Part shown: one piece after another, positions 6,591 through 57,296 of the stretch | How positions within the stretch are numbered: position 1 is the first letter of the stretch | How the letters are laid out: the number at the start of each line of letters is the position of its first letter | NCBI GenBank assembly: GCA_963745445.1 | Contig: CAVUXD010000004.1 | Location: forward strand, 33,663-97,662 | Source of the DNA: an uncultured Bacteroidota bacterium | GTDB taxonomy: Bacteria > Bacteroidota > Bacteroidia > Chitinophagales > Chitinophagaceae | Direction of reading: 5' to 3' | DNA: 64,000 nucleotides | Made by a program: the position numbers and the translations under genes | The notes under the pieces: generated by a model | The model's input: only the letters and a program-made list of their open reading frames with translations | What the model was told of the DNA's origin: nothing | The model's database searches: none

Positions 6591-6602
6591 TATAGCAGAC
6601 CA

Positions 6603-7350: not shown

Positions 7351-7365
7351 AATCAATTTTTTTAC

Positions 7366-10141: not shown

Positions 10142-10282
10142 GTTGGTAAGGGAGGTTGGTTATGGTTTAATGATTGGTGTGTTCCCATTTCACAGGTAGA
10201 GCTATGGTACGAAGGTCTTCATAATCCCGAAAAACCCTGTTACCATTCATGTAATTTTACGTTAAAGATTTTATAGATAATT

Positions 10283-13676: not shown

Positions 13677-13705
13677 TTAATATCTCTATGTACTCTTAAC
13701 TAAGT

Positions 13706-13735
13706 AAGCAATCACAAAGTGGTTGCTTTTTTATT
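13706..13735 (+). terminator. Rho-independent terminator between the convergent TPR gene and argS
   Basis: AAGCAATCAC-aaa-GTGGTTGCTT forms a 10-bp stem with one G:U pair, followed by TTTTATTT. Confidence 0.6.
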
Positions 13736-13742
13736 TCGGTTA

Positions 13743-15644: not shown

Positions 15645-15779
15645 CCTCTCTGAATTTGGCTGCGAAAATACGAAGCTATGAGTTCTAAACGGCACAAACG
15701 TATTCTAAAGAATAATGAAATGTTTTTCTTCTTTTGCAATTATGGTTTTGACATTTCTTCTATTACTTTTGCTTCTTTC

Positions 15780-16295
15780 ATGCGAAGGCATATACATACA
15801 GTAAGGGATTTGCTTCTTCCCATCATTGATTTCTTTTATCCTCCTTTTAAAAGAATGATGAACCTGCAGACATTCCGTTATGCAGTTTGCGGAGCTGCAA
15901 ACACAGCGCTTGGCTTTATTGTTTTCTATGTTAGTTTCAAATTCATATTTGCGGGTGAAAACCTTGATTTCGGTTTTTATGTTTTTACTCCATATACCGT
16001 GGCTCTTGTGGTTTCATTCTGCATCAGTTTTCCTTTTGGTTTCTTTTTATTGAAATATGTTGTATTCAGCGATTCGGGGCTTCGGGGCAGGGTGCAGTTA
16101 TTCCGTTATTTCCTGGTTTACCTTTTTAATTTGTTTTTGAACTATATATTATTGAAGATTACTGTAGAGATACTGCATATTTATCCCACCATTGCCCAAA
16201 TGATCGACATTGTAATCCTCGTTTTACTCAGTTATCTTTTCCAGCGGCATTTTACTTTCAGGAAGAAAACAGGACCAGAGGATATCAAAAATTAA
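15780..16295 (+). CDS. GtrA-family membrane protein
   Basis: About 171 aa counted from the MRRHIH Met, with four predicted TM helices. FRYAVCGAANTALGFIVFYV matches the GtrA-like N-terminal pattern. It is divergent from argS. Confidence 0.7.
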   Translation: MRRHIHTVRDLLLPIIDFFYPPFKRMMNLQTFRYAVCGAANTALGFIVFYVSFKFIFAGENLDFGFYVFTPYTVALVVSFCISFPFGFFLLKYVVFSDSGLRGRVQLFRYFLVYLFNLFLNYILLKITVEILHIYPTIAQMIDIVILVLLSYLFQRHFTFRKKTGPEDIKN

Positions 16296-17724: not shown

Positions 17725-17792
17725 TGTCACAATAAAAATAAATAAAGAAAGGAAAAGGAATTGTGAAGAAATTAATTTCTGTAAAATCGTGA

Positions 17793-18221
17793 TCATTCAT
17801 CCATCCGGTCATAAACTTTTTGGGTTTTTACTTCCCGGAAGCCGACTGCTTTATAAAAACCATGACTTTCATCCCTGACTATATTACTGCGCACCCTGAT
17901 CTTATGAATCTTTTCCTGCTTTATCCACTTGATACCTTCCTGGATCAATAATCTTCCGATACCTTTTTGGCGATGATCGGCATCCACAACCAATCCAACA
18001 ATTTCAGCAAAGGGAGAACCAATCAATAAAACTCTTTTTTGAAACTGGATCCAACCAATAATCATTCCATCCAACTCGGCAACAAAAGCAATTTGGTTTT
18101 TATCCGAACCGATTCGATTAATGTTTTCAATTGTTTCGTCAATAGTGGTAGGATACCCGAGTTGTCCTGACAAGCGGGAAACTTCTTTGGCATCTTTTTC
18201 CAGGACAGTTCTTATCTTCAT
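17793..18221 (-). CDS. GNAT family N-acetyltransferase
   Basis: Intact 142 aa with acetyl-CoA motif A, HRQKGIGRLLIQ, and VRSNIVRDESHGFYKAVGF. Confidence 0.85.
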   Translation of the reverse strand: MKIRTVLEKDAKEVSRLSGQLGYPTTIDETIENINRIGSDKNQIAFVAELDGMIIGWIQFQKRVLLIGSPFAEIVGLVVDADHRQKGIGRLLIQEGIKWIKQEKIHKIRVRSNIVRDESHGFYKAVGFREVKTQKVYDRMDE

Positions 18222-18240
18222 GAATTCAAAATTACGAACA

Positions 18241-18657
18241 TCACATCCCTTCTTTAGGCTGTGTCATACTGAACCAATTACCGCATCCATCTTTCACAAT
18301 ACATTCTATACCGTAGAATTGTTCTTTGGGTTCTGTGATGTCAACACCTTTTGCTTTTAGTTCTTCATAAGTAGCCTTGCAATCCGGGGTATATAGGACG
18401 CCGGCACCCATTACACCTTTTTCCAACAAAAACTGGAAGGCTTTATTTACATCTTCAGCAAAACCGTTGGTACTATTAACGGGCAAAAGAATAATTTCAA
18501 GGTCAGGTTGGTCGGGTGGATTCAGTGTCAGCCAGCGAAAACCGTTATCCATCTTAACGTCTGTGTTCACTTTAAAACCTAATTTGTTTACATAAAAATC
18601 ATAAGCTTTATCCTGGTCGGAGACAAAGATCGAAGTGTGCGACATTTTAGTTATCAT
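18241..18657 (-). CDS. VOC/glyoxalase-family protein
   Basis: Intact 138 aa. HTSIFVSDQDKAYDFYVNKLGF is a typical paired beta-alpha-beta-beta-beta module start. Confidence 0.85.
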   Translation of the reverse strand: MITKMSHTSIFVSDQDKAYDFYVNKLGFKVNTDVKMDNGFRWLTLNPPDQPDLEIILLPVNSTNGFAEDVNKAFQFLLEKGVMGAGVLYTPDCKATYEELKAKGVDITEPKEQFYGIECIVKDGCGNWFSMTQPKEGM

Positions 18658-18723
18658 AAATAAATTTTAGAATGTAAATCTATGGAAGCTGAAAGATAAT
18701 TCTTTCTTGGATCTTGCTTTTGT

Positions 18724-18790
18724 TGTGAATATGCAATAGTGAATAGTGAAAAGAAATTCTGGCTTTCAAAGACCCCAATTGACTATTCAC
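18724..18790. repeat. heptamer-word hairpin (AGTGAAT)n ... GACTATTCAC at the 3' end of the AraC gene
   Basis: A TGTGAAT-ATGCAAT-AGTGAAT-AGTGAAA tract at 18724-18751 pairs with GACTATTCAC at 18781-18790. The stem is 9 bp and the loop about 32 nt. Confidence 0.6.
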
Positions 18791-19198
18791 CCAACTTATA
18801 TCTTTCAATAAAACAATGAGGAATAAATTTTTTTGGTTGCTCTTTTGCCTGTTGTTTTTTCAGCCAGGCTATATTGCGATAGTATGTGGGAGCGAAGCCG
18901 ATCTCTTTTTTGAATAAAGAACTGAATGATCCAATACTTTCAAAACCAACTTCATTGCATACATCCGATAACCGGTTTGTTCTCTGCTAAAAGTTCTTTG
19001 GCCTTATCAATTCTCTTCCGGGTGATGTATTGATGTGGGGTGCGACGATACACTTTCCGGAACAATCGGTGAAAATGAAAACGAGAAAGAAATGCCTGCT
19101 GGGATATCTGATTCCAGGTCGATTGCTTCATGAAAATTTTCGTCAATATAAATTTTTGCGATAGCTATGCGTTGATATAAGTCGGTGGTTAAATTCAT
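18783..19198 (-). pseudogene. AraC-family HTH regulator (short form), about 2 frameshifts
   Basis: MNLTTDLYQRIAIAKIYIDENFHEAIDLES.. is followed, after a shift, by ISQQAFLSRFHFHRLFRKVYRRTPHQYITRKRIDKAKELL. After a second shift it continues VGFESIGSFSSLFKKEIGFAPTYY, ending at the stop at 18783-18785. Confidence 0.65.
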
Positions 19199-19210
19199 TT
19201 CAGTAAAATT

Positions 19211-19280
19211 AGTGAATAGTGAAAAGTCAATAGTGAAAAGTGATTTGTGACATTGGCAAATTCGACTATTCACTATTCAC
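19211..19280. repeat. heptamer-word hairpin (AGTGAAT)5 ... (ATTCACT)2 between the AraC gene and the ydeI-like gene
   Basis: AGTGAAT-AGTGAAA-AGTCAAT-AGTGAAA-AGTGATT lies at 19211-19245. GTGAATAGTGAA (19212-19223) is perfectly complementary to TTCACTATTCAC (19269-19280). On the minus strand the hairpin is followed by TAATTTT, so it may terminate the ydeI-like gene. Confidence 0.65.
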
Positions 19281-19956
19281 TTAAATATTCCTCGGATTCT
19301 TCCATTGCTTGCCCAATCTTTCAATCGTTCCTTTAATTCTTTCTTTTCTTGTTTCTTCTCTTTTTGCCGTCACGATCCATTCGATGTATTCCTTTTTATT
19401 GGTAAATGAAAGTGTATTGAAATAAGTCAGATTGCTTTTTATTTTTCTTTAAAGCAGCAGCAAGATCATCCGGTAATTTCACTTCTTTGGTTTCCGGATT
19501 CACCCATTTAAAAATTTCCCTTTCCGGTTTTGGTTTGGCTTCTTTCTTTTTTTCTGCTTCTGTTTTCAACTTGCATCCAAAAGCCGACCAGGTATCATCA
19601 AATGAAATTAGACTGATCCAGGTGAGTTTATCATGTTTCATCAATCAATCCCAGCCTTTATCCCTCGTGAGGTCGGTTTGAATTTTTGAAGTTCCTTTTG
19701 GATAATAGATCCAGAGCAATCACATTCTCTTTTACAAGTTTCAATACTTTATTCATTTCTTTTTCCAGCTGTGCTTTGTTCATCACAAACCAATGCACCT
19801 GGTTGTAATCTTTTGTCTCGCATATGGCGATATCAAATTTTTACACCGGCAGGTAATGAGCCGATCATTTTTTTTAAAATCTGAGCCGGTGCATTGATTG
19901 TAAGAAGAGTAAAACCTTCTTTGATCTTCAGTTTTTCGGAAATCGATATTGGCCAT
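19281..19956 (-). pseudogene. YdeI/OmpD-associated family protein, several frameshifts
   Basis: The C-terminal frame reads KEYIEWIVTAKREETRKERIKGTIERLGKQWKNPRNI, the OmdA-type tail. Fragment 19396-19644 reads HDKLTWISLISFDDTWSAFG..KLPDDLAAALKKNKK. N-terminal pieces are readable only across frame changes. Confidence 0.55.
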
Positions 19957-20062
19957 ATTGATTTAATTATAGTTTAAAATTAAGAATCCAGCGTCAAAAT
20001 TGATCCGTTATTGAATCTTGCGAGGTTAAATCATTCGCTTCTTTAAAGCTAAAATTCTGCCA

Positions 20063-20070
20063 TATTTTTG
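20063..20070 (+). promoter_or_regulatory. candidate Bacteroidota -7 promoter box (TAnnTTTG) upstream of dnaK
   Basis: TATTTTTG lies 84 nt upstream of the dnaK ATG. Motif match only. Confidence 0.3.
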
Positions 20071-20141
20071 CATTTACCTTCCCAGGTGGCACTATCATTG
20101 TTAACCTATATAGCAACTGTCTACCGTCAGGCAGACTTTAA

Positions 20142-22101
<1,960 letters not shown>

Positions 22102-22148
22102 GAAAATTGACTAAGGGCTCAAATAGTTTAGATAATTAAAATTTGTTT

Positions 22149-22436
22149 ATGGTATTGAATATATTGTTGACTGAAGCCAATCCCCGTTATCCCCTTAAAG
22201 GAAGCACTGTAGAAATAGGAGAATTTAATTTTTTCAAAATCACCAATTTTGAAAAAAAAGGTAATTGTGCTGCTACTGCATTATATGATGGCATGAAAGG
22301 CAAACATGTAGGTGAAGCACGCCTAGAATGGAACAAAAACAAAGAAATTCCGATTGAAGGGCATACAATATTTTGGATTGAAGGAATAAATTTCCAAAAA
22401 AACGACTTTATATCTTGTAATATAGAGCTCTCCTAA
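22149..22436 (+). CDS. hypothetical protein (about 95 aa), orphan
   Basis: Intact ORF in a markedly AT-rich stretch (15/60 G+C in line 22201-22260). No recognisable motif or signal peptide. Confidence 0.4.
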   Translation: MVLNILLTEANPRYPLKGSTVEIGEFNFFKITNFEKKGNCAATALYDGMKGKHVGEARLEWNKNKEIPIEGHTIFWIEGINFQKNDFISCNIELS

Positions 22437-22453
22437 TTTTTTTTAGAAGTGTA

Positions 22454-23056
22454 TCACTTAATTTTTATTTCTTGTTGCCCTTTTACTTCGTAGATATATT
22501 TATGTGTTATTCGAGGTTTAGGATGAAGTGAATCTATAGCTGTTTCTGTTTCGAATCTCCATTTTAAATGTTCTCCGTTTATAATAGTATCCTTAAGAGT
22601 CTCCCATGGACTAAGTAAAAATGGATTTGCTTCTTTGACTGCTTTATCAAATGCTTTACTAAAATCATCATTTGGCGATGATTTTCTATTTTTTTGAACC
22701 TTATTTGAAACAACTTTATTCCGACCATCTCCCATGTCGGCAATCTCTTTTAAAGTATATGTTTTAAAAACAGAAATTTCTTTGTTGGGATACTCAATAG
22801 GCTCTGTCATTTCTTCTACTCCCAAATATTTTTCATCTCCCGGCAACAGTTCAATGGCCGATGTTTCATATTGGTACCATTTGTCGTTGGTTACTGTTGT
22901 TTTTTTAACGATAAATCTGAATTCTTTTTCGGTAGATGTATTTACTAAATAAAAATTGTTCTTCTGTCTTTTCTCAATTTTACCGGACAACTGATCACAG
23001 CCGTAAAACATTAAACAGATAACGCCCAAACAATAGGATTTAATTAAAGAAGTCAT
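22454..23056 (-). CDS. hypothetical lipoprotein (200 aa), orphan
   Basis: Intact ORF with a signal peptide and lipobox-like LMFYGC. No recognisable domain. It is convergent with 22149-22436. Confidence 0.6.
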   Translation of the reverse strand: MTSLIKSYCLGVICLMFYGCDQLSGKIEKRQKNNFYLVNTSTEKEFRFIVKKTTVTNDKWYQYETSAIELLPGDEKYLGVEEMTEPIEYPNKEISVFKTYTLKEIADMGDGRNKVVSNKVQKNRKSSPNDDFSKAFDKAVKEANPFLLSPWETLKDTIINGEHLKWRFETETAIDSLHPKPRITHKYIYEVKGQQEIKIK

Positions 23057-23335
23057 GGTTCTGAAATCGTCTAAGGATAATTATTTAATAGCTGATTAAA
23101 AGTAGGAATTATTTTTTAAAGCATAATTTTATAAGCTCATACGATATAAGAGGAAAACAAATTATTCAGAACTTTTTAAAAAATACGAATTAGCAATAGC
23201 AACCGTCAGACATGATGAATGGGATAGTATTCATCAATTAAAAAATGCAATTTATCAGTTTACGGGGTTTCTCGAAGCAAGTGTAGAATTTGTAGAGCCT
23301 TCTCTTTGTTGATGTTGGCGTCCCGCCAATATTTT

Positions 23336-24269
23336 TTATTTCAGGTATCGCTTAAACCAGTTATCAACCTCATTCATATCCGGTATTGGGTTATGTCCTT
23401 GATTTGGATTTTTGAATTCTTTGTACGGAACTCCGGCGTCCTTTAATTTTTTACACATCGTTGCAGCCTGTCTCGCCGGAACGATCGGGTCATTTTCAGA
23501 ATAATAAATTAGGAATGGCGCATCATCGTTGGTTACATAAGTAATAGGAGAGGCTTCTGCATATTTGCCCGATAAAATAAATTCATTGTTTTTTACCTCG
23601 GGCAGATTCACCAATATAATTAAGTGCCATTTTCAAATAATATTTCATATAAGGTAAGGTGTCAGAATTCTCGTCCATCTCTGATAAGACAAAGGGAGCA
23701 GCTAAGGCAACCACCGCCTGAACTTTTGAACTCACACTGTCAATTGGACTTTCAGGATGGATGATTGTTGTATCAGTAACACCGAGCATAGCGGAAAGAT
23801 TAGCGCCGGAAGAATGTCCCATGGCACCTATATGATTGGCATCAATGCCATATTCTTTCGCATTGTATCTTACAAAACGAACTGCCCGCTGGCAATCATA
23901 AAATATATCAGGGAAATGAAATCGGGGAGCAAACCGATGGTTAATAACAAAAACAGTATAGCCTTTATTGATCAAAGTTTGTATCCACTTTCCGCTATAG
24001 GCAGAGTCAAGGAAGTAATCATCTTTTAAAGGAACCTGGTTATATACTTTTTGATAAGGATCAGGAGCTCCAAAACCACTCCCAACAATATATACGATCC
24101 CCAAATGATTACTATTCTCCGGTTGATAAATGTCCATCAATAACGCCATGCCGGAGATCATGCCATATATTACATTCTCATGCTTTATCACTTTAGGGCT
24201 TTGACAGAATGTTTGCGTTGTCAAAACATTTAAAGCAATGACGAAGAAAAGTAATTGGATCTTTTTCAT
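23336..24269 (-). pseudogene. alpha/beta-hydrolase (esterase/lipase-type) with signal peptide, one frameshift near 23600
   Basis: Fragment 23583-24269 carries the GxSxG nucleophile elbow (GAMGHSSGANLS) and an HG-type oxyanion region (VGSGFGAP). Fragment 23336-23614 supplies the C-terminal Asp/His region (..SENDPIVP.., ..NQGHN..). Confidence 0.75.
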
Positions 24270-30569: not shown

Positions 30570-33252
30570 ATGAAGCTCCAATTTTACTTAAAATTCCATA
30601 CCGGGTTTGGCCAGAGTCTATGGATCAGCGGAAACCTTGATGAGTTAGGAAATGGTGATGAGAAAATGGCTTTGCCGATGGAATATTTGAATGAAGAATT
30701 CTGGCAATGCACCCTGAACATAAAAAGGAAAAACATTACCGAACCGGTAATCTATAAATACTTTTTAAAAAATAAGGATGGAGAACTGATCTGGGAGTGG
30801 GGCAATGACCGGTTAATCAATGTTATTAAAAAAGATGTCAGCGAAGTACAGCTCACTGATACCTGGAATCATGCGGGTGAATACGAGAATGTTTTTTTCA
30901 CCGCACCTTTTAAAAATGTTTTACTCGGGAATAAAACCGCTGCACCCAAACCAAAAGAAGACAAAAAAAATTTCACGTATCTCTTCAGGGTAAAAGCCCC
31001 GCTTCTGAAAAAAAATGAATCGGCTTGTATCATTGGGAGTTGCAATACGCTGGGAAACTGGTCAACCGAAAAGCCTTTGTTGCTTTCAAAAAAAGACGAT
31101 TGGTACGAAGCCAAACTGGATCTGTCTGAAGATAGTTTTCCGGTGGCTTATAAATATGGTGTATATGACTAAAGCAAAAAGAATTTGTTGCGTATGAATC
31201 AGGCAATAACCGTTTGTTATACGGTGATGCATCAAAGAAAAAAATCAATATCCTTCATGATGGTTTTGTTCATTTACCAAATAATACCTGGAAAGGAGCA
31301 GGAGTGGCCATACCTGTATTTAGTCTTCGCAGCAAGAACAGTTTTGGCGTGGGTGAATTTACTGATATTAAATTGCTGGTTGATTGGGCAGTAAAGCAGG
31401 TTTGAAATTGATTCAGATACTACCGGTCAATGATACTATTGCTACACATACTATTTCCGATTCTTATCCTTATGCGGCTATTTCTGCATTTGCATTGCAC
31501 CCGTTCTATATCAATCTTTTTGAGCTGGCCGGGAAAAATATGCTTCAAAAATTCAGAACCTTAAAAAAGAACAGAAGCAACTCAATAAACTGGCTGAAAT
31601 GGATTATGAGGAGGTAATGAAGTTCAAATTAGCCGTGCTGAAAGAATTATATGAAGTAATGGGAGAGGAGATGCTTGAATCGAAGAATACAAAGAATTTT
31701 TTGATAATAATAAACATTGGCTGCTTCCATATGCCGCTTTTTGTTTTTTCAGGGATAAATATGGACTTCATCTTTTGAAAATGGAAAACCACAGTGATTA
31801 TAATAAAGAAGAAATTGAAAAATTGTATTCTCCTCAATCATCCTCCAGTGCAGATATTTCTTTTTACTATTTTGTTCAATATCATTTGCATTGCAGTTAA
31901 AAGAAGCTGCAGATTATGCCCATAAAAAAGGATTGATCTAAAAGGAGATATGCCTATTGGCATATAGCTACAGTTGTGATGCATGGATTGCTCCGGAATT
32001 ATTTAATATGGAGCGGACAGGCTGGTGCTCCGCCGGATGATTTTACTGCAAAAGGACAGAACTGGGGATTTCCTACTTACAACTGGAAACGAATGCAGGA
32101 AGATGGATTTGCCTGGTGGAAACAACGTTTTGAGCAAATGAGTAATTATTTCGATGCATTCCGTATCGATCATATTCTTGGTTTTTTCCGCATCTGGAAT
32201 ATTCCGATCCATGCAGTGCAAGGAATCATGGGACATTTTGTTCCTGCTATTCCTGTTCATATTGTTGAATTTGGAGAAAATGGTATCTGGTTCGATGATC
32301 AGCGTTATTGCAAACCATTTATTACTGATGCAGTATTGGTGAAATTTTTGGAGAACTGTGCTGAAACAGTGAGATCAGAATATCTTGTTACCAAATAATT
32401 ATTCGGGGGTATGATCTTACTACCGGAATTTGCAACACAACGACAGGTAGAAAACTTTTTTGCAGTCAGTTGAGAGGAATCTGAAGAAAATGAAAAATTA
32501 AAACAGGGATTATTTGATCTTATTTCCAATGTGATCTTATTTGAAGAAGAAGGTTCGCAGGGACAGGAGTTTCATTTTCGTATTTCTATGGAAAAAACAT
32601 CTTTCTTTCAAATACCTGATTCCGCTTGTACAGGAAAAATTAAAGGAGATCTTTATATTAATTATTTCTACCGCCGCCAGGATGATTTTTGGAAAAAAGA
32701 AGCTATGCACAAACTTCCGCAATTGAAAGGTGCAACCAATATGCTGGTCTGTGGTGAAGATCTTGGAATGGTACCTCATTGTGTACCGGATGTAATGAAA
32801 CAATTAGGTATTCTCAGCCTGGAAATACAACGGATGCCAAAAGATATCAAAAAAGAATTTTTTCATCCCAATGATGCACCTTATCTATCTGTTATTACTC
32901 CTTCTACACATGATATGAGTACTATCCGTGGCTGGTGGGAAGAGAACCGGGAAAAAACACAGCGATTTTTATAATCATGTGCTTGGGACAATGGGGCGAT
33001 GCACCTTATTTTTGTGAATCATGGATCAACCGGGCTATTGTTTTGCAGCATTTATATTCACCGGCCATGTGGAGTATTTTTCAGTTGCAGGATATTTTGG
33101 GAATGAGTGAAACGCTTCGCCGTGAAAATCCACATGAAGAAAGAATCAATAATCCTGCCAATTGCAAAACATTACTGGCAATACCGGATGCATATCATCT
33201 TGAAGATCTTATCAAAGCAAAAGAATTCAATAAAGAATTAAGGGATATGTAG
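30570..33252 (+). pseudogene. malQ: 4-alpha-glucanotransferase (GH77 amylomaltase) with N-terminal CBM20 domains, at least 6 frameshifts
   Basis: Fragment 30570-31172 holds two CBM20-like modules (GQSLWISGNLDELGNG, CIIGSCNTLGNWS). Later fragments give AGVAIPVFSLRSKNSFGVGEF, LIQILPVNDT, PPDDFTAKGQNWGFP, FRIDHILGFFRIW, VCGEDLGMVPHCV and STHDMSTIRGWW. Confidence 0.88.
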
Positions 33253-33331
33253 ATGCATAGCGGAAGATAGAGTGATTCTAAATTTTCTGAATAAGTTTGT
33301 CTCTGATTATTACAACGTTCATATTTGCATC

Positions 33332-34362
33332 ATGAAAGTAAATTACTGGCCATATAATCTTAAATTCCGTCATCCTTTCACTATTTCCAAAGGAACAAAA
33401 ACACATCAGCCAACATTAATTGTTGAACTGGAACATTTCGGAATCAAAGGTTATGGTGAAGCACCGGCTATTGCTTATTATAATATTCCTGTTGAAAAAA
33501 TGATCGAAGACCTGGAAAGCAAAGAAAACGATTTGTTGAAAAATTTGCTTTCACCGAACCTGAACGTTACTGGCATTACCTGCATCATTTATTTCCGCAG
33601 AATCCTTTTTTGGTTTGTGCACTGGATATAGCTGCCTGGGATATGTATGGCAAAATGAAAAACAAAAAACTTTATGAACTCTGGAATGGTGATATTTCCA
33701 AAAATCCAATGACTGATTATACCATCGGTATTGATAGCATTGAAAAGATGGTAGCCAAGCTGAAAGAAAAACCCTGGCCGATCTATAAAATAAAAGTGGG
33801 AACGGCAGATGATATTGCCATTGTAAAAGCATTGAGAGAAAATACAGATGCAATATTAAGAGTAGATGCCAATGCTGCCTGGGATGTTGAAACGGCTTTG
33901 AAACTAATTCCTCAATTAAAAGAACTGGGAGTGGAATTTGTGGAACAACCGTTGGCAAAAGATAATTGGGAAGGAATGAAAATATTGTTTAAAGAATCTT
34001 CATTACCATTGATTGCAGATGAAGCTTGTGTATTTGAAAAGGATGTGGAAAAATGCAAAGATCATTTTCATGGTATCAATATCAAACTGACCAAATGCAG
34101 CGGCATTACTCCGGCACTACGAATGATAAAAAGAGCAAGGGAACTGGATATGAAAGTAATGATCGGCTGTATGAATGAATCAACGGTCGGTTCTGCTGCT
34201 ATTGCTCATTTACTTCCTTTTATTGATTATGTTGATATGGATGGCCCTTTATTACTGGAAGAAGATGTGGCTACCGGAATTCAATATGATTTTGGAAAAA
34301 TCATTTATTCCGATAAACCGGGTTTGGGAATTGATTATACAGGATTATTTCAAAATAATTGA
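33332..34362 (+). pseudogene. dipeptide (L-Ala-D/L-Glu) epimerase, enolase superfamily, 1-2 frameshifts near 33550-33610
   Basis: MKVNYWPYNLKFRHPFTISKGTKTHQPTLIVELEHFGIKGYGEA is the capping domain. Fragment 33610-34362 holds ILRVDANAAWD, VEFVEQPL, LIADEA and INIKLTKCSGIT (barrel metal and base residues). Confidence 0.8.
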
Positions 34363-43490: not shown

Positions 43491-43687
43491 GAGGCAGAAG
43501 GTTTGGTAATGGAGACACTAAAATAAAAATTTTATTGAAATTTCTATACAGCTTCGGAGTAGCTACAAAAAATAAGTCCCGCTGTAGACAGGATCAGACG
43601 AATATTTCCACTTTTTTTAAGAAAGAATGATGTGTTTTGTTTGAGAACCCGAGAAAAATGTATCTTAATAAATCAAGTTATATTACC

Positions 43688-44068
43688 ATGACAGAAAAAG
43701 ATTATTTCGACAAGCTGTACAAAGGGGCAAAATCATCAACTTTCAGAACTGCAAAAGAATTAAGGTCCGCTGAAACTGAAGCTGAGAAAAAATTATGGCT
43801 CTTTCTTCGTAACAGGCAATTGAGAGGAAAAAAATTTAGAAGACAGCATGCGATGGGGAATTATATACTGGATTTCTATTGCAGTGAATGCAAATTGGTC
43901 ATCGAACTTGATGGAGAAGTCCATAATGCTAAAGAAACGTTGCAATATGATCTGGCAAGAACTGAAAAACTCAAAGAATATGATATTACGGTTATCAGGT
44001 TTTGGAATTCTGAAGTAATAAATCAGACAGAAAAAGTTTTAGAAAAGATTGCTGAATATCTTGTATAA
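43688..44068 (+). CDS. DUF559 (Vsr-like endonuclease fold) protein
   Basis: EAEKKLWLFLRNRQLRGKKFRRQHAMGNYILDFYCSECKLVIELDGEVH..DLARTEKLKEYDITVIRFWNSEV is the classic DUF559 core. The start could also be 43658 or 43637. Confidence 0.8.
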   Translation: MTEKDYFDKLYKGAKSSTFRTAKELRSAETEAEKKLWLFLRNRQLRGKKFRRQHAMGNYILDFYCSECKLVIELDGEVHNAKETLQYDLARTEKLKEYDITVIRFWNSEVINQTEKVLEKIAEYLV

Positions 44069-44069
44069 C

Positions 44070-44180
44070 AACCTCACCCTTTCAATATCTCTTAAACCAG
44101 AATTTTCCGATTTCCCTCTCCACATGGAGAGGGCAGAAGAAAATTTCTTAAAGCAGGAAAATTGTAGGGTGAGGTTAAAA
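44070..44180. repeat. MITE/REP-like palindromic element, copy 1 (about 110 bp)
   Basis: It has 11-bp terminal inverted repeats AACCTCACCCT...AGGGTGAGGTT. Inner pairs are AATTTTCC/GGAAAATT and the central hairpin CCCTCTCC-acat-GGAGAGGG. It starts 2 nt after the DUF559 stop. Confidence 0.85.
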
Positions 44181-44268
44181 TGCAGAAGGTTTTTAATATC
44201 AAAAAAGATGACGAAATCAAACTAAGTAGTTAATCTGGGGAATAAATCTTCTGTGAACTTACTAATAC

Positions 44269-44377
44269 CCTCACCCTTTCAATATCTTTTAAACCAGAAT
44301 TTTCCGATTTCCCTCTCCACATGGAGAGGGCAGAAGAAAATTTCTTAAAGCAGGAAAATTGTAGGGTGAGGTTAAAA
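44269..44377. repeat. MITE/REP-like palindromic element, copy 2
   Basis: Near-identical direct copy of 44070-44180 (one substitution seen, ctct/cttt). It is separated from copy 1 by about 88 bp of unique sequence. Confidence 0.85.
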
Positions 44378-44516: not shown

Positions 44517-46685
44517 CTATTTTTTTATCGTTGCGTCACCGGCTGCTTCTTTTTTGCTATGAATCTGTGCAAGGGTAGGAGCAATGACCAAAGATACAAT
44601 AGACATCAATTTAATCAGAATATTCATTGAAGGACCGGAAGTATCTTTAAAAGGATCACCAACAGTATCACCTGTTACAGATGCTTTATGTGGTTCTGAT
44701 TTTTTATAATAACATCTGACCATTTATCTCAACACCTTTTTCAAAAGATTTCTTTGCATTATCCCAGGCACCACCGGCATTGTTCTGAAACATTCCCATC
44801 AATACACCGCTTACAGTAGCACCGGCAAGAAACCACCCAAGGCTTCAGGACCAAGAACAAAACCAATGATCAAAGGAGAAATAATGGCAATAGCACCGGG
44901 CAACATCATTTTTTTAATAGATGCATCGGTAGAAATAGCAACACATTTTTCATATTCAGGTTTGCCTGTTCCTTCCATAATACCGGGAATTGTCCTTGAA
45001 CTGGCGGCGAACTTCTTCCACCATTGCCATAGCAGCTTCACCAACTGCCCGGATAGCCAATGAAGAAAAAATAAAAGGAATCATACCGCCTACAAATAGA
45101 GAAGCCAATACATTTGCTTTATAAATATCAATGCCATTAATTCCGTGCTACACCAACAAATGCAGCAAACAATGCCAGTGCTGTTAATGCAGCAGAAGCA
45201 ATAGCAAATCCTTTACCGGTTGCAGCAGTTGTATTACCAACTGCATCCAGCACATCTGTTTTTTCACGAACTTCTTTTGGCAATTCACTCATTTCAGCAA
45301 TACCACCTGCATTATCTGCAATAGGTCCAAATGCATCAATCGCTAATTGCATAGCTGTTGTAGCCATCATACCGGCAGCAGCAATAGCTACACCATATAA
45401 TCCGGCACATGCGTAAGAACCCCAGATACCACCAGCTAAAACTAATATCGGCAAGAAAGGTTGATTCCATACCCACAGCCAAACCACCAATAATATTTGT
45501 TGCATGACCTGTTACATGATTGCCGGATGATAGTCTTCACCGGGCGTTTACCCATCGCTGTATAATATTCAGTGATAATACTCATTAATGTACCCACTAA
45601 CAAGCCAACACCAATAGCTCCCATCACTCCCCATTTGGTAAATTCATGTCCACGTAACATCATTGTTTCAGGAAGTAACAAAATAAACCAATACCAACTG
45701 ATGCAATCGCAGTTAGAATAATAGAACCCCAGTTACCCATATTCAATGCTTTCTGTACAGTATCTGTATTGATACCTGCTGTATCACTTATACGAACAAA
45801 CAAAGTTCCGACAATAGAAAATAAAATACCAACACCTGCAATCAGCATTGGTAAAAGAATAGGAGAAAAACCGCCCAACATATCATCACCCATCACAATT
45901 GTTTCCTGTCCCAATACCATTGTTGCCAGAACTGTTGCTACATAAGAACCAAAAAGATCGGCGCCCATACCGGCAACATCACCAACATTATCACCAACGT
46001 TATCTGCAATAGTTGCAGGGTTACGGGGATCATCTTCAGGAATACCTGCTTCTACTTTACCTACCAGGTCAGCGCCAACATCAGCAGCTTTGGTATAAAT
46101 ACCACCACCCACACGGGCAAATAAGAGCAATGGATTCAGCAGCCCAGAGAAAAACCGGTCAGTACTTCAATTGTTCTCACCATTTCTTCACTGTGTACAG
46201 GTGCATCAGGAGCAAAAATTTGTTTTAATACAATAAATAAACCACCAAGACCTAGTACGGCCAGACCAGCAACACCCATTCCCATTACAGAACCACCGGT
46301 AAAAGAAACATTCAATGCTTTGCTCAAACTGGTACGGGCTGCATGTGCTGTACGTACATTAGCTTTGGTAGCGACCTTCATACCGATATAACCAGCAGTA
46401 GCACTGAATACAGCGCCGAGTAACAAATGCAACGGCAATCAGCCAATGGGAATGAGGATTGGCACTGGCCATCACTGCCAACAGTATGGCAACGATGACT
46501 ACAAAATATCCAAGTATTTTCCATTCTGCTTTCAGAAAAGCCATAGCGCCTTCAGCAATATAATTGCTGATCTCTTTCATCCGGTCGGTGCCGGCATCCT
46601 GTTTGGAAACCCAGCTGAATTTAATAAGAGTATAGAGCAATCCAATGACACCCATCACAGGAACGAGATAGATCAATTTGTCCAT
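44517..46685 (-). pseudogene. hppA: membrane-bound proton/sodium-translocating pyrophosphatase, at least 6 frameshifts
   Basis: Seven colinear fragments from 46359-46685 down to 44517-44723. Signatures: [79 protein letters not shown]. Confidence 0.92.
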
Positions 46686-46935
46686 AAACGTTGATTCTTA
46701 ATGCAGTTTTAAAGGAGGGCAAAGATAGGGCATGAAGTCCAATTTTCTAAGTTTTTGGTTGCCGGCTTTTGTACTACTATCGGCGTCTGTTGCGATGCTC
46801 ACTTGATCGTTCTGAATTCTACTGGGCTTCTTAAAGTATTAGTAATTTTGATTTATTACATACTGTTTGAAATTCAATAAATTTCAGAACAAAAGTTTGA
46901 GGCAATTTACAAGATCGCTACAATCTTTTACCTAA

Positions 46936-47709
46936 ATGATTGACCAATTCAAAAAAGATTTAAAAGCTGCTTTCCCGAGAGACATAGTTGATGCTCTTTT
47001 AGATTCTTACGTCGAAATCAAAACTAATTTTATTATTGACAAATGGGAGCCATCCGAGTTAAATGGGGGTAAGTTCGTAGAAGCTACATTACGAATTCTA
47101 CAGTTTGTATGTTTTGGAGGAGTATATACTCCTGTTGGGACATCAATTAGGAATACTTTTGTTGAGCTACAGAGAATAGAACAATCAGCAACAACTATTA
47201 TAGATTCATACCGGCTACATATCCCAAGGTGCTTAGGAGCTATTTATAATATAAGAAATAGACGTGGTGTTGGTCATTTAGGTGGTGATATTAATCCAAA
47301 CAAGGCCGATGCTTTGTTAATAATTACAATCTCAGAATGGATATTAGCTGAACTATATAGAATCAATTATCTAATAACGTTACCTAAGGCCCAAGAACTG
47401 GTAAACAACCTTGTCTCCCGAAAGTTGGAATTAATATTTGAAATTAATGGTGTAAAAAGAATTCTAAACCCAAAATTGAAAATCAAAGACCAAATTTTAC
47501 TTTTGCTATATTCAGATAATGATCAATATCTGACAATCGACAATCTTTGTATACATCTTAAATATAACAATAAGAATTATCTAAAAAATAAAATTCTTGC
47601 AGAAATCGATAACCATAAACTAATTGAGTTAACAGTAGACGAGAAAGTTTATCTATTACCTCCAGGAAGAAAGTATGTTGAAGACAACTACGAAAATTGG
47701 AAACCTTAA
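46936..47709 (+). CDS. HEPN-like (Rx4-6H) helical domain fused to a winged-helix-like C-terminus; uncharacterised
   Basis: Intact 257 aa. R107-N-R-R-G-V-G-H114 (nt 47254-47277) is embedded in predicted helices (..CLGAIYNIRNRRGVGHLGGDINPNKADALLIITISEWILAELYR). The C-terminal part, KDQILLLLYSDNDQYLTIDNLCIHL..ILAEIDNHKLIELT, looks like a wHTH. G+C is very low (17/60 and 14/60 in two sampled lines). Confidence 0.6.
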   Translation: MIDQFKKDLKAAFPRDIVDALLDSYVEIKTNFIIDKWEPSELNGGKFVEATLRILQFVCFGGVYTPVGTSIRNTFVELQRIEQSATTIIDSYRLHIPRCLGAIYNIRNRRGVGHLGGDINPNKADALLIITISEWILAELYRINYLITLPKAQELVNNLVSRKLELIFEINGVKRILNPKLKIKDQILLLLYSDNDQYLTIDNLCIHLKYNNKNYLKNKILAEIDNHKLIELTVDEKVYLLPPGRKYVEDNYENWKP

Positions 47710-47719
47710 ACTATAAAAT

Positions 47720-48241
47720 ATGTCAGACACATTAGCAAAAATCAATTTAAAGATTGGCCAAATAGAAATCTCAATTGAAGGCCCATCAGATTTTGTTTCA
47801 AATCAATACGACAAAGTCGAAGCTCACCTAAAAACTTATTCAGAAATATCGACAAAAATTGAACCCTTAAAAAAAATAGTCGAAGTTTCTCAGGATCCAA
47901 ATAGTGAGGGAGCAAAAGGTAGTCAAAATAGCCCCAATGGGTTACCTCAATCTTTTGGGGAATGGCTAAATATTATCCCAAAAGAATCAAGCGATACAGA
48001 CAAAGCTATTCTCGCAGGATATTTTGTCCAAATTACTTCTGAAAAGAAATATTTTAGAACAAGAGATGTTACGAAATTACTTAAGGCACATTCTATTAAA
48101 CTATCTAACCCAAGTGTTTTTTTGAGGACTTCAATAGATGCAAAAAAAATATTTCAGGTTTCAAAGACTGGAACTGAAAGTAATTTTAAATTAACTCGAG
48201 AAAGCGAGGAAGCTATGCAAAAGCTTTTAAACAAAAGCTAA
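47720..48241 (+). CDS. small partner protein with a wHTH-like C-terminus; uncharacterised
   Basis: Intact 173 aa, starting 10 nt after the upstream gene. It has a beta-rich N-terminus, a low-complexity linker (SQDPNSEGAKGSQNSPNG) and the C-terminal DKAILAGYFVQITSEKKYFRTRDVTKLLKAHSIKLSNPSVFL. There is no nucleotidyltransferase motif. Confidence 0.6.
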   Translation: MSDTLAKINLKIGQIEISIEGPSDFVSNQYDKVEAHLKTYSEISTKIEPLKKIVEVSQDPNSEGAKGSQNSPNGLPQSFGEWLNIIPKESSDTDKAILAGYFVQITSEKKYFRTRDVTKLLKAHSIKLSNPSVFLRTSIDAKKIFQVSKTGTESNFKLTRESEEAMQKLLNKS

Positions 48242-48271
48242 GTAAAGCACTCATCTTGTTTCTAATGTTGG

Positions 48272-48295
48272 CGCCTCTACAGGCGTTTTCTTTTG
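48272..48295 (+). terminator. weak Rho-independent terminator after the two-gene islet
   Basis: CGCCT-ctac-AGGCG is followed by TTTTCTTTTG. The stem is only 5 bp. Confidence 0.3.
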
Positions 48296-48757
48296 ACTCC
48301 TCTTGCTTTGATAAATAATTAATATTGAAATGAAAATAAAGTTTGGTATTTTTTTTAGAATGCTCAATTAAAAAAAATATGAACCTTGGTAATAGAACAT
48401 ACAAAATATATTTATGCTTGCTCTTTACATTTTTTTTATCATTAACTTCCCCTTCGCAAATAGATACGTCCAAAAAAGGCATTTCTCCACCGCCCCGGTT
48501 AGTGTCCGCAACAAAAAAGAATGCCCCGTTGCCCGTACCGATTATCATCGGGACCTCCACGCAACGGAACTAAATAACATAAGCGTATAGATCAGTGGCG
48601 GGTGAAAGATGCTTCGACAGGCTCAGCACACCGCCACGGAGTAAAAAAAACCGGCACTACGCTAAACTTGAAACATTGTAGCTTTGAACTGAGAACTAAA
48701 AACAAACAGGTATGCCGAAACCCTAATAGAGTAGGCAAAAAATTAAAACGAAATAAA

Positions 48758-49054: not shown

Positions 49055-49168
49055 TTAAAAAGGATTGCTTACTAAACCATAAAAAAATTGCAACTTTCGC
49101 TGACGTTGGTGACTGTCCCTATGCTAATCGTGAGTCATCGCAATTATTTTCTTTTTCAGAATGCCCAG

Positions 49169-49236
49169 CTCTTCGAAGCTTATAGCTTCGAAAGTATATT
49201 TTATCGCTTGAAGCGATATGATAATGCTGCGAAACA
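49169..49236. repeat. 68-bp multi-palindrome module, copy A
   Basis: The sequence is CTCTTCGAAGCTTATAGCTTCGAAAGTATATTTTATCGCTTGAAGCGATATGATAATGCTGCGAAACA. It contains the hairpins CTTCGAAGCT-tat-AGCTTCGAAG and ATCGCT-tga-AGCGAT, and is followed by TGCGAAAC-aaaat-GTTTCGCA. Confidence 0.8.
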
Positions 49237-50620: not shown

Positions 50621-50642
50621 AACTGAAAACTTTTTCTTTTTT

Positions 50643-50740
50643 CCAGCAGAATCTCACCCAGAGCCCTGTGCCGGGCCGTGGACTCTGCGTAAGTAACAAA
50701 TGAAGAGGACTTGTGGAAGCTCGTCTAATAGATAAAAAAG
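50643..50740. repeat. about 100-nt intergenic repeat, copy 1 (core AGCCCTGTGCCGGGCCGTGGAC...GCGTAAGTAACAAATGA)
   Basis: By eye it aligns at roughly three quarters identity over about 100 nt with 52247-52345. Confidence 0.7.
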
Positions 50741-50781: not shown

Positions 50782-51075
50782 TTTCTTCTACCAAAATTTC
50801 CAAAATTCTACCCAGAAAAAAGCTTTTTCAATATTAAACTCGGGAAGTTCAGGGTTGAAAATCATTTTTTCAATATTAAACTTCGGAAGTTCAGGGTTGA
50901 AAATCCTTTTTTTAATATTAAACTTCGGAAGTTCAGGGTTGAAATTGTCTTTTTCAATATTAAACTGGGCAGATGTAACCAAGAAAAAAGTTTTTTCAAT
51001 ATTGAATCTCCGAAGTTCATACAAGAAAAAAACTTTTTCAATACTGAAAAACCGCAATTTTTACCCGAAAAGGCA
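50782..51075. repeat. tandem array of 7 x 42-bp units with nested dyad symmetry
   Basis: Unit boundaries are 50782, 50824, 50866, 50908, 50950, 50992 and 51034. The three central units are near identical (TTTTTCAATATTAAACTTCGGAAGTTCAGGGTTGAAAATCN) and the outer units are degenerate. Confidence 0.9.
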
Positions 51076-51251: not shown

Positions 51252-52031
51252 ATGAAACGAATTTTCAGATTCAACATGATGGCAATCATGATTGCACTCT
51301 TTTTTGTTACCTGCAAAAGCAAAGAAAAAAAAGAAGAACCATCTACTGTTAATACAGATACCTCAGCGAAGACAACACCGATGACCACGGGCACAACAGA
51401 GAATATGGACGCAGCAAAAGTTGCCCCGGATCGTTACCAGGTGGTGAAAGATACAATGGGCATCAGGATGCTGAATGTTGTGTACAAGCCCGGCGATTCA
51501 TCCGCCATGCATTCCCATCCTGACAATGTATTGTATGTAATTGATGGAGGAAAGACACAATTTACAATGCAAGATGGTAGCAAGCAGACAATGGAATTTA
51601 AAGGTGGCACAATAATGATCCTGCCCGGCGGTACACATAGTGTAAAAAATGTAGGCACTACTACTACAAGGTCAATTTTAGTGGAAGTGAACCGTCCAAA
51701 CAAAGCAGGAGTCATGCAGGATGCATCTATGGATGCGACAAAAGTTGCTTCGGCACTTTATAAAGTGGTAGCTGATACAATGAATATAAGAGTTCTTATG
51801 GCCACGTATAAGCCCGGCGCTTCATCTGCCATGCATGCGCATCCTGATAATGCCATTTATGTCATAGAGGGAGGCAATGCAGAATTTACGATGAAGGACG
51901 GAACCAAGCAAACCATGAATATGGAGAAAGGGATGTCATCTATAACACCGGCTGGAATGCATTCCGTAAAAAATACCGGCAAGACAACTACAAAAGTGTT
52001 GATCGTGGAAGTGAACCGTCCGCAGCAATAA
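51252..52031 (+). CDS. bicupin lipoprotein (two tandem cupin_2 domains)
   Basis: Intact 259 aa with lipobox FFVTC. It has two about 100-aa repeats, each with ..KPGDSSAMHSHPDNVLYVIDGG..PGGTHSVKNVG.. (the HxH...H metal motif). Confidence 0.85.
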   Translation: MKRIFRFNMMAIMIALFFVTCKSKEKKEEPSTVNTDTSAKTTPMTTGTTENMDAAKVAPDRYQVVKDTMGIRMLNVVYKPGDSSAMHSHPDNVLYVIDGGKTQFTMQDGSKQTMEFKGGTIMILPGGTHSVKNVGTTTTRSILVEVNRPNKAGVMQDASMDATKVASALYKVVADTMNIRVLMATYKPGASSAMHAHPDNAIYVIEGGNAEFTMKDGTKQTMNMEKGMSSITPAGMHSVKNTGKTTTKVLIVEVNRPQQ

Positions 52032-52055: not shown

Positions 52056-52087
52056 GTCAGCCTTCTCAGGGAGGCTGACTTTTTTTA
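52056..52087 (+). terminator. Rho-independent terminator of the bicupin gene
   Basis: GTCAGCCT-tctcaggg-AGGCTGAC is followed by TTTTTTT. Confidence 0.8.
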
Positions 52088-52095
52088 AAGCCAAT

Positions 52096-52163
52096 CTCTT
52101 CAATGCATATAGCTTCGAAAGTATATAGTATCGCTTGAAGCGATAGGATAATGCTGCGAAACA
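52096..52163. repeat. 68-bp multi-palindrome module, copy B
   Basis: The sequence is CTCTTCAATGCATATAGCTTCGAAAGTATATAGTATCGCTTGAAGCGATAGGATAATGCTGCGAAACA. It is the same module as 49169-49236, with a handful of substitutions. Confidence 0.8.
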
Positions 52164-52246
52164 TCCAGATATATCGGGACGCAGAGCTGAGGATACTATC
52201 TTTCAACAAAGAAAAAGTAAACTGACTGCATCAAAAACATTTTTTC

Positions 52247-52345
52247 CCCAGCCGACTCTCGCAAATAGCCCTGTGCCGAGCCGTGGACCCGGCGTAAATA
52301 ATAAATGACCACGAGGCTCTGCGGAGGCTCCTCGTCTAAGAAAAA
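52247..52345. repeat. about 100-nt intergenic repeat, copy 2 (core AGCCCTGTGCCGAGCCGTGGAC...GCGTAAATAATAAATGA)
   Basis: Homologous to 50643-50740. Its central GCGTAAATAATAAATGACCAC also resembles GCGTAAATATAAATGAACAC at 49799-49818. Confidence 0.7.
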
Positions 52346-55020: not shown

Positions 55021-55149
55021 TTTCTGATAAAATTTAATAGGATTCATTTGATCAACTCTGTTGATGCTGGCGCTTGCCCCGACCCGTCTCGATAGCTATC
55101 GTGGATGACAATCGTGGGCCTCTGCCAACATTTTTTTTATGCCATCATT

Positions 55150-55292
55150 GGTGTTTAACGGCCCAGCATTCCAAAATCTAATTCATCACAGCAGCAACCC
55201 GAAATTCAAATAACATACTTTGGTTCGTTTGTTGGTGTAAACTTTGATATGTGATAGATGCCGCATTTAAAGATCAACAAAGGTGTAAATGA
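55150..55292. repeat. about 145-nt intergenic repeat, copy 1
   Basis: GGTGTTTAACGGCCCAGCATTCC...CACAGCAGCAACCCGAAATTCAAATAACATACTTTGGTTCGTTTGTTGG... aligns with 57151-57296 in the same orientation. Confidence 0.85.
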
Positions 55293-57051: not shown

Positions 57052-57150
57052 TTGTCTTCATTAATAATAGTTTGCTCTGTCAGGATAGCTTTCAGCAAGC
57101 TTTTATATTTTATGATAATTCATTTATAGAAATATCTTTTCTCCGTTCTT

Positions 57151-57296
57151 GGTTTTTAACGGTCCGCCATTCCCAAATTTAGTTTATCACAGCAGCAGCC
57201 TGAAATTCAAATAACATACTTTGGCTCGTTTGTTCGTCTGAACTTCGATATAGAATGGATGCTTGCATGTGAAGATCAGCAAAAAAGTAAAAATTT
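57151..57296. repeat. about 145-nt intergenic repeat, copy 2
   Basis: A direct repeat of 55150-55292, roughly four fifths identical by eye. It lies between lgt and the DUF3570 gene. Confidence 0.85.

Follow-up and report, generated by a model that had tools for sequence, protein, structure and literature searches.

The stretch of DNA analysed here (the window, 64,000 nucleotides (nt) of contig CAVUXD010000004.1 in assembly GCA_963745445.1, from an uncultured bacterium of the Chitinophagaceae) contains, at positions 46936 to 48241, an islet of two genes, A and B, which is a self-contained two-gene operon of a large family without a name. Its first product is predicted to be an RNase effector of the HEPN superfamily and its second a dedicated partner protein with a winged helix. 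The two genes are:

46936 to 47709, + strand: gene A, an open reading frame (ORF) with ATG start, 257 amino acids (aa); HEPN-like N-terminal domain and C-terminal winged helix; predicted RNase effector or toxin
47720 to 48241, + strand: gene B, an ORF with ATG start, 173 aa; obligate partner of gene A; predicted antitoxin or regulator

The ORF list of the window agrees with the initial annotation, made from the letters of the window, in that both ORFs are intact, lie on the same strand and are separated by 10 nt. Because full-length homologues are numerous (218 matches for A in a 90%-clustered database, all annotated as "hypothetical" and without Pfam domains, and 42 detectable close homologues of B, also without Pfam domains), A and B are real genes and not chance ORFs. 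The composition of the islet is foreign, as had been proposed on the basis of its low content of guanine plus cytosine (GC): GC is 32.1% compared to the window mean of 38.2%, the islet sits in the lowest-GC stretch of the window, and values as low occur in just 0.7% of 1306-nt windows (standard deviation for such windows 2.0%). GC at third codon positions (GC3) is 0.23–0.25 in A and B compared to 0.34–0.39 in eight long ORFs of the window.

Neither protein could be assigned to a named family, in line with the initial annotation; scans of A and B against Pfam, PADLOC, NCBIfam and PHROGs gave nothing meaningful, and single-sequence searches of the PDB sequences gave no match. The relatives of A are 70–76% identical to it in Ignavibacteria, Caldithrix abyssi (Calab_1031) and Flavobacteriaceae, and about 45–50% identical in Chloroflexota and Desulfobacteraceae. 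A profile search with the N-terminal domain retrieved 950 clusters at 50% identity, the expectation value (E) being ≤1e-10 for 603. When one genome per species was scanned with a pattern, relatives were present in 284 genomes (i.e., in at least 284 species). The family extends over most bacterial phyla, lineages of the candidate phyla radiation (CPR) and archaea (Methanoregula, Woesearchaeota), and since its members are nearly all 250–270 aa long, the architecture can be regarded as fixed. The sole plasmid match (locus L090; loci are referred to by L numbers throughout) is a 290-aa "hypothetical protein" of Natronomonas pharaonis plasmid PL131 (NC_007427.1, 4971–5843), which is 26% identical to the N-terminal domain of A, adjoins an ISH6-like transposase and may represent a very divergent haloarchaeal branch of the family.

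The AlphaFold2 (AF2) model of A, built from a 45-sequence alignment with a predicted local distance difference test (pLDDT) score of 88.8, comprises helices at residues 2–12, 15–33, 39–42, 44–59, 74–82, 90–109, 123–145 and 149–157, a loop of low confidence at 110–122, and a winged helix at 167–255. On the DNA, its parts are placed as follows:

46936 to 47415, + strand: HEPN-like domain of A (residues 1–160), all-alpha, with helix 1 at 15–33, helix 2 at 44–59, an insert at 60–89, helix 3 at 90–109 and helix 4 at 123–145
47080 to 47094, + strand: E49-A-T-L-R53 of A, the E-x3-[KR] second HEPN motif, in helix 2
47254 to 47277, + strand: R107-N-R-R-G-V-G-H114 of A, the R-N-x5-H motif
47416 to 47706, + strand: winged helix-turn-helix of A (residues 161–257), from Foldseek and profile matches

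HEPN domains are defined by a four-helix core with frequent inserts at helix 2/helix 3, a polar residue after the R of the motif, and a second acidic residue in helix 2, typically in E-x3-[KR] (PMC3710099). The four-helix core of A with its insert at residues 60–89 (containing the short helix 74–82) fits this definition; R107 and N108, the latter being the polar residue after R107, stand at the end of helix 90–109, H114 follows in the loop before helix 123–145, and E49 and R53 both lie within helix 44–59. Conservation was computed for 69 diverse members of the family, 25–44% identical to the window protein. E49, R107, R110, H114, D125 and W135 are invariant in all 69, F47, P97, N108 (65/69), N122, E139 and R142 are at least 90% conserved, and R53 is kept in 60. 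The initial annotation had described an all-helical N-terminal domain with a HEPN-type R-N-x5-H motif at nt 47254–47277; model and conservation bear this out, and the coordinates are right (46936 + 106 × 3 = 47254).

The motif can be compared with that of SadR, an Abi_C RNase, in which the R, N and H of RNEYGDAH are essential for RNase activity and defence (PMC13590631); the x5 spacing of RNRRGVGH in A is the same. Among the 24,736 Pfam families scanned, Abi_C (PF14355, the HEPN domain of AbiJ) was the one that recurred, below threshold, in 5 of the 69 members, including protein P0285, and in two subclade consensus sequences. In the alignments inspected, those of P0285 and of both consensus sequences, residues ~96–135, i.e., the motif segment, fell onto positions 40–77 of the 83 in the Abi_C profile. 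The position of the motif at the end of helix 3, the E-x3-R in helix 2, the insert after that helix and these recurrent Abi_C matches go beyond the initial annotation and strengthen the HEPN assignment. At the other end of the protein, the winged-helix C-terminus that had been anticipated for A was recovered by Foldseek, which matched it to MarR, MepR and DtxR (probability 1.0, root-mean-square deviation 2–3.6 Å over 66–81 columns, E about 0.3); PDB searches with profiles A1 and A4 gave a weak winged-helix match to YgaV only (E 0.025). A PADLOC scan of the 69 members returned weak matches of winged-helix type only (CARF3, WH_III-A; E ≥1.5e-4), and likeness to CARF3/WH_III-A and to the kite protein MksE/MukE was dismissed as generic winged-helix resemblance. 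We consider it quite probable that the N-terminal domain of A is the HEPN domain of a new family, distantly related to Abi_C, and A is accordingly predicted from its sequence to combine a HEPN domain of the Abi_C/AbiJ-like type (R-N-x5-H) with a winged helix.

The AF2 model of gene B (pLDDT 66.6) is of lower confidence than that of A and divides the protein into three parts:

47720 to 47857, + strand: beta-hairpin (5–22) and helix (23–45) of B (residues 1–46), from the AF2 model and alignment A2
47858 to 47944, + strand: low-complexity linker of B (residues 47–75), predicted to be disordered; pLDDT below 50 at residues 47–71
47945 to 48238, + strand: winged helix-turn-helix of B (residues 76–173), at 79–171 in the model; conserved across the whole family

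The model thus matches the earlier description of B as a short beta-rich N-terminus, a linker and a second winged helix-turn-helix domain. The annotation had also found B to lack a nucleotidyltransferase signature, with which the winged-helix model and the missing Pfam domains of B and its 42 homologues agree. The N-terminal domain is kept in the clade of the window and replaced in most of the distant clade (in hhalign comparisons, the N-termini of distant-clade partners did not match that of B, except for partners such as those of L023 and L171), and the linker is unalignable and varies in length in alignment A2. The winged helix of B gave Foldseek matches to MarR and forkhead domains (E 0.01–0.1, probability 0.99–1.0), and the profile of the distant-clade partners matched it in hhalign with a probability of 95.7% (E 1e-8, 97 columns); judged from these profiles, the partner winged helix is homologous across both clades. 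The winged helices of A and B from the window gave nothing when compared by BLASTP, and the profile of the A winged helix matched that of the distant-clade partners with a probability of 72% (E 3.5e-5), which is only a hint that the winged helices of A and its partner are paralogous.

The co-conservation of the two genes, which the initial annotation had put forward as a check, was confirmed. B follows directly after A in all six contexts obtained by exact protein look-up, and in a survey of 84 non-redundant loci, 79 of which could be evaluated for the partner, a recognisable partner was adjacent to A and co-oriented in at least 72; five further loci have an unclassified adjacent ORF of partner size. 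The genes of the relatives are separated by short gaps or overlap by 4 nt. The order is A then B in the clade of the window (at least 43% identity), whereas in the larger, distant clade (35–41% identity) the partner, about 175–205 aa long, lies upstream of A, often with a 4-nt overlap. In seven loci, partner-like genes flank A on both sides; three-gene versions, with a gene for a protein of ~200 aa upstream and a B-type gene for ~170 aa downstream, are seen in L045, L081 and L083 (Flagellimonas, Flavobacteriales) and in L019 and L074. The pair thus consists of two small, co-oriented, tightly spaced and co-inherited genes, the layout of a type II toxin-antitoxin system. There is also a natural fusion, P0230 (344 aa, in two assemblies), in which A carries an extra partner-type winged helix and is followed by a separate full-length partner gene:

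L171, 4001 to 5035 and 5161 to 5649: the P0230 fusion and its partner gene (European Nucleotide Archive, ERZ4219663)

Another apparent fusion, P0304 (381 aa), was discarded because the gene call is probably frameshifted or misannotated.

In many loci, the A-B pair is bracketed by attC-type sites, defined here by a GTTRRRY core site on the 5′ side and, directly after the last gene, an imperfect palindrome that begins with its reverse complement, RYYYAAC. The upstream core site lies 13–35 nt before the first start codon, after a long imperfect palindrome (e.g., GTTATGGGC and GTTGTGAGC), and the exact reverse complements (GCCCATAAC and GCTCACAAC) open a second imperfect palindrome directly after the last stop codon, which ends in another GTTRRRY. 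Exact 9-nt R′/R″ complementarity was found in 11 non-redundant loci:

L001/L002 (Caldithrix, counted once), L008, L011, L013, L016 (Fischerella), L020, L021
L036 (Patiriisocius), L057 (Polaribacter), L060 (Fodinibius), L079

Looser candidates are L018 and L068, and among control pairs in which upstream and downstream sites had been mismatched, the rate was 3% with up to one mismatch allowed. The downstream sites fold better than shuffled sequences in 4 of the 5 loci tested (z −1.9 to −3.9), and attC-like repeats form arrays of at least 12 copies in L002 and at least 5 copies in L016. Complementary bracketing of this kind identifies the pair, in at least 11 non-redundant loci, as an integron gene cassette, which the initial annotation had missed; such carriage explains identities of 70–86% across phyla. 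Toxin-antitoxin and defence genes are common cargo of chromosomal integrons, and Abi_C ("Taranis") and HEPN-only ("Esos") cassettes are among them (10.1101/2024.07.02.601686).

The array of L002 (Caldithrix abyssi, CP018099) extends over 2100–20700, where at least 12 repeats of 110–300 nt containing CGTTAAAC are spaced at 370–6250 nt; many units of 370 nt hold just a 40-aa ORF. The array resembles a large chromosomal integron cassette array, and a PhdYeFM/ParE pair and a DUF3800 gene are found nearby. In L004, an extra gene (4390–5163, 257 aa, without Pfam domains) lies 5 kb upstream of the pair; it is not a paralogue of A according to the family hidden Markov model, and in L003, a near-identical contig (Ignavibacteria), there is only a 75-aa call at that place.

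In the window itself, bounding attC sites, by which the pair is recognised as a cassette in its relatives, are absent: no complementary attC site follows gene B, and no array of attC-like repeats was recognised. A sequence before gene A could be aligned with the 5′ core sites of relatives:

46913 to 46926, + strand: eroded cassette 5′ boundary GATCGCTACAATCT, counterpart of GTTRRRY + GCAACCT in relatives (alignment A6)

GATCGCTACAATCT aligns with GTTGGCTGCAACCT of L173 and L174 and with the near-identical GTTGGCTGTAACCT of L175, as well as with GTTGTGAGCAACCT of L036 and GTTATATGCAACCT of L011. L173–L175 are the closest relatives (82–86% aa identity) and have CGTTGGCTGCAACCT (TGTAACCT in L175) directly before the ATG. 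Compared to the sequence of L173/L174, 10 of the 14 positions are identical, and the window has GAT in place of the core-site GTT. The window copy looks like an acquired cassette which is now immobile and whose attC sites have eroded. None of 80 metagenomic loci of hppA, the gene upstream of the islet, with N-termini 78–94% identical, carried the A-B pair and none was syntenic with the window, so that an insertion at this site is neither dated nor proven.

Other features close to the operon could be involved in its expression:

46809 to 46890, strand not assigned: imperfect inverted repeat with 31-nt arms, 71% complementary, upstream of gene A (repeat search)
46843 to 46850, + strand: candidate promoter −7 box TAATTTTG, a match to TAnnTTTG read off the sequence
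48270 to 48297, + strand: terminator-like hairpin GGCGCCTCTACAGGCGTT (48270–48287) followed by the T-run TTCTTTTGAC, 29 nt past the stop codon of gene B; a consensus match only

The consensus of the −7 promoter box in Bacteroidota is TAnnTTTG, and TAATTTTG is by inference only a candidate promoter of the operon. The inverted repeat could be an operator or the remnant of a preceding attC site; as single-stranded DNA it folds no better than shuffled sequence (z = −0.13). It is not conserved in relatives, and no operator common to the regions upstream of the operon was found across the loci. A type III (RNA antitoxin) system was considered and rejected, since there is no Rfam match, tRNA or tandem repeat within or beside the operon.

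We consider it moderately probable that A and B form a toxin-antitoxin or abortive-infection module in which a HEPN RNase effector is restrained by a winged-helix partner. From the conserved residues and the pairing of the genes we infer an RNase activity of A, its neutralisation by B and a role in conflict, which might work as follows. A would dimerise through its HEPN domain, and R107, N108 and H114 would form a metal-independent RNase site to which E49 and R53 would contribute. B would bind A, either holding the RNase site closed or blocking dimerisation, and the winged helices of both proteins would bind nucleic acid, i.e., the promoter of their own operon (which B may autoregulate) or the nucleic acid of an invader. 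Loss, titration or displacement of B, triggered by cassette loss or phage infection, would free the RNase of A and lead to growth arrest. The module spreads horizontally, in many genomes as an integron cassette. A more specific version is, in our opinion, possible but clearly more doubtful: an undescribed, integron-mobilised conflict system in which the paralogous winged helices of A and its partner jointly sense nucleic acid, the variable N-terminal domain of the partner cages the HEPN site without reverse transcriptase or multicopy single-stranded DNA (msDNA), and release upon phage infection or cassette loss results in RNA cleavage and arrest. If this were true, it would add a compact new defence or addiction system, distributed across bacteria, CPR and archaea, and a new branch of HEPN proteins.

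Several results weigh against a HEPN-based conflict module. In profile, PDB and Foldseek searches, none of the HEPN models and structures was matched significantly; the Abi_C matches scored 13.7–16 bits compared to a gathering threshold of 24 bits (E 0.013–0.067), and the window protein A itself had zero Pfam matches at E up to 1. The best 50 Foldseek matches of the whole A model to PDB and BFVD were all winged-helix proteins (E >0.1), and the loop bearing H114 was modelled at pLDDT below 50. The initial annotation had suggested a Foldseek search for the HEPN fold, and this gave the winged helix only, whereas the HEPN hallmarks were found in the correct helices; because Foldseek recognises only the C-terminal winged helix, the HEPN question was judged on the hallmarks of sequence and structure. 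The 146 flanking proteins sampled fall into 118 Pfam families, each present in at most two loci and mostly housekeeping, and Pfam and PADLOC scans of these proteins gave no defence-island signal and only scattered PADLOC matches, so that the location in defence islands that had been proposed as a check did not materialise. A tblastn search of plasmids and phages gave one weak match, to the haloarchaeal megaplasmid (L090), and no phage match, and the module is therefore not typically plasmid- or phage-borne. In the window, finally, the flanks fold like shuffled sequences (z −0.13 and −0.40) and hold no intact attC site.

Among the alternatives, the one that survives best is a two-component defence system in which B acts as co-sensor or adaptor for activation instead of as antitoxin, so that both genes are needed and A alone is non-toxic; detection of phage nucleic acid or of a phage protein by both winged helices would activate the HEPN RNase. 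HEPN proteins of the Abi_C/AbiJ type, such as SadR and Taranis, act as effectors against phages, the partner combines a conserved winged helix with an N-terminal domain that differs from clade to clade, as is typical of an arms-race sensor, the module is carried in integron cassette arrays, known reservoirs of defence genes, and a fusion of A with an extra partner-type winged helix exists. We nevertheless think such a system rather unlikely, because the flanking genes lack defence-island enrichment, there is no PADLOC match, and tight translational coupling with reversible gene order is a classic feature of toxin-antitoxin modules.

It is improbable that the pair is non-toxic and serves regulation or RNA processing, with A, anchored to DNA through its winged helix, as a sequence-specific RNA processor or a regulator that senses a ligand, B as co-regulator, and the cassette conferring an accessory regulatory benefit and neither addiction nor defence. 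HEPN families without nuclease function usually lose the catalytic residues (PMC3710099), whereas the A family, despite the great divergence of its members, has kept the catalytic R, N and H as well as the E-x3-R with few or no exceptions. Each module does have two winged-helix domains, its neighbour genes are mostly housekeeping, and some HEPN families, e.g., MtlR, are regulators rather than toxins (Table 1 in PMC3710099); however, no conserved set of adjacent genes is available for regulation, and the patchy distribution, horizontal transfer and integron carriage fit a selfish or conflict module. Least probable of all is that the N-terminal domain of A is not HEPN but an unrelated helical (ligand- or protein-binding) domain with a coincidental R...H spacing, the pair being two winged-helix DNA-binding proteins, since the missing significant profile or fold match to HEPN and the low-confidence motif loop are outweighed by four independent HEPN hallmarks that coincide in the correct helices and by the recurrence, with several independent queries, of Abi_C alone of all Pfam families on the same segment.

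The gene hppA lies at 44517–46685 on the minus strand, has a GC content of 41.7%, and is broken into at least 7 ORF pieces, with the reading frame changing −3/−1/−2/−3 relative to intact homologues of 741–749 aa. The initial annotation had contrasted the intact A and B with an hppA gene riddled with indels; both observations hold, but as an argument for selection the contrast is weak, because fragmentation is window-wide: only 67% of the window is covered by ORFs of at least 100 aa, and same-strand runs of fragments are numerous (e.g., 569–3240 and 32531–34362). This suggests an error-prone (long-read) assembly or widespread gene decay, and the contrast with hppA may partly reflect the former.

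Elsewhere in the window, a tandem array of five 42-nt units (AAACTTCGGAAGTTCAGGGTTGAAAATC.TTTTTTCAATATT) at 50794–51045 gives rise to an "FNIEK"-type peptide repeat in ORFs of both strands. Four dispersed families of intergenic repeats, 67–115 nt long and 81–97% identical, some with short palindromes, resemble repetitive extragenic palindromic (REP) elements or miniature inverted-repeat transposable elements (MITEs) and are unlike attC sites:

44066 to 44180 and 44263 to 44377: dispersed repeat pair
49153 to 49236 and 52080 to 52163: dispersed repeat pair
50637 to 50703 and 52242 to 52308: dispersed repeat pair
55148 to 55261 and 57149 to 57262: dispersed repeat pair

The second lowest-GC patch of the window (~22000–23450, 31.8–32.5% in 1306-nt windows), which holds a 200-aa ORF on the minus strand (22454–23056), may be another acquired islet. 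Between a 652-aa gene and hppA lies a 143-aa ORF (43637–44068, + strand; sequence ..FRRQHAMGNYILDFYC..LVIELDGEVH..), which presumably resembles proteins with a DUF559-type endonuclease domain. A 259-aa ORF (51252–52031, + strand) contains an internal 190-nt repeat (51404–51593 and 51728–51917, 72% identical), and because of this duplication its protein has two tandem domains.

Many immune and addiction systems, including Cas13, Csm6, RnlA, HepT, AbiJ/SadR and retron IX, have HEPN RNases as effectors, and the A family, everywhere annotated as "hypothetical protein", has no entry in Pfam, NCBIfam, PADLOC or PHROG. Outside Vibrio, the cargo of chromosomal integrons has been little explored, and the cassettes described here add to it a new member that is widespread and of broad taxonomic range. 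With only 1.3 kb, two genes, defined candidate residues (E49, R53, R107, N108, H114), and natural variants in gene order as well as a natural fusion, the system is easy to test. If the partner restrains the RNase by a winged-helix clamp, a mechanism seen so far in one type of retron would prove to be general.

Among the known systems, AbiJ/Abi_C (PF14355; SadR of Staphylococcus aureus, Taranis of Vibrio cholerae) is nearest to A in sequence: the pattern R-polar-x5-H is shared (RNRRGVGH in A, RNEYGDAH in SadR), and Abi_C is the sole Pfam family that recurrently touches the A family, on the motif segment. The Abi_C proteins are HEPN RNase effectors in conflict systems, as is predicted for A, and Taranis is also an integron cassette. 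They differ in working as single genes and in their C-terminal HEPN domain, which either stands on its own or is preceded by variable domains (AbiJ-NTD1 to 5), whereas A has it at the N-terminus, followed by a winged helix, and has a constant partner gene. Furthermore, the A family reaches at most 16 bits compared to the gathering score of 24, and R110, D125, W135 and the segment N122-x2-D125 are specific to it. Because neither threshold nor architecture agrees, A is not a member of Abi_C/AbiJ.

In organisation, the pair is similar to HEPN-MNT (HepT-MntA) systems, which are also two-gene operons with a small HEPN protein carrying Rx4-6H and a wide, patchy distribution in bacteria and archaea. 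However, the antitoxin there is a minimal nucleotidyltransferase (MNT; GSx10DxD) that AMPylates the toxin, whereas B is a winged-helix protein, and the HEPN protein A carries a winged helix of its own. As it lacks a nucleotidyltransferase, A-B is not HEPN-MNT. RnlA-RnlB and LsoA-LsoB, type II toxin-antitoxin systems with HEPN toxins, share with it the principle of a HEPN RNase toxin neutralised by an adjacent small antitoxin, and they are anti-phage; their toxins, on the other hand, are much larger and multidomain with a C-terminal HEPN domain, their antitoxins are unrelated to B, and no similarity was detected.

The HEPN nuclease of the type IX retron is accompanied by a protein that has HEPN-binding domains at its N-terminus and a helix-turn-helix (HTH) at its C-terminus; this protein wraps around the nuclease so that the active site is shielded (10.64898/2026.07.14.738597). 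The type IX retron (Retron-Kva2) resembles A-B in combining a HEPN nuclease with a separate HTH/winged-helix protein, the nuclease being released on a phage trigger, and by analogy it may be regarded as the best mechanistic precedent for a restraint of A by B. It differs in needing a reverse transcriptase and msDNA; no reverse transcriptase family is among the 25 commonest Pfam families of the 146 sampled neighbours, and no RNA family turned up around the copy in the window. Its HEPN protein is also without the canonical Rx4-6H, a motif that the A family has, and there is no sequence similarity (PADLOC negative). Since none of the known anti-phage systems in PADLOC-DB v2.0.0 matches A or B of the window, the pair is best described as a new, predicted HEPN family in which a winged helix is fused to the HEPN domain and a second winged-helix protein serves as dedicated partner; the logic of a HEPN toxin and its partner is a familiar one.

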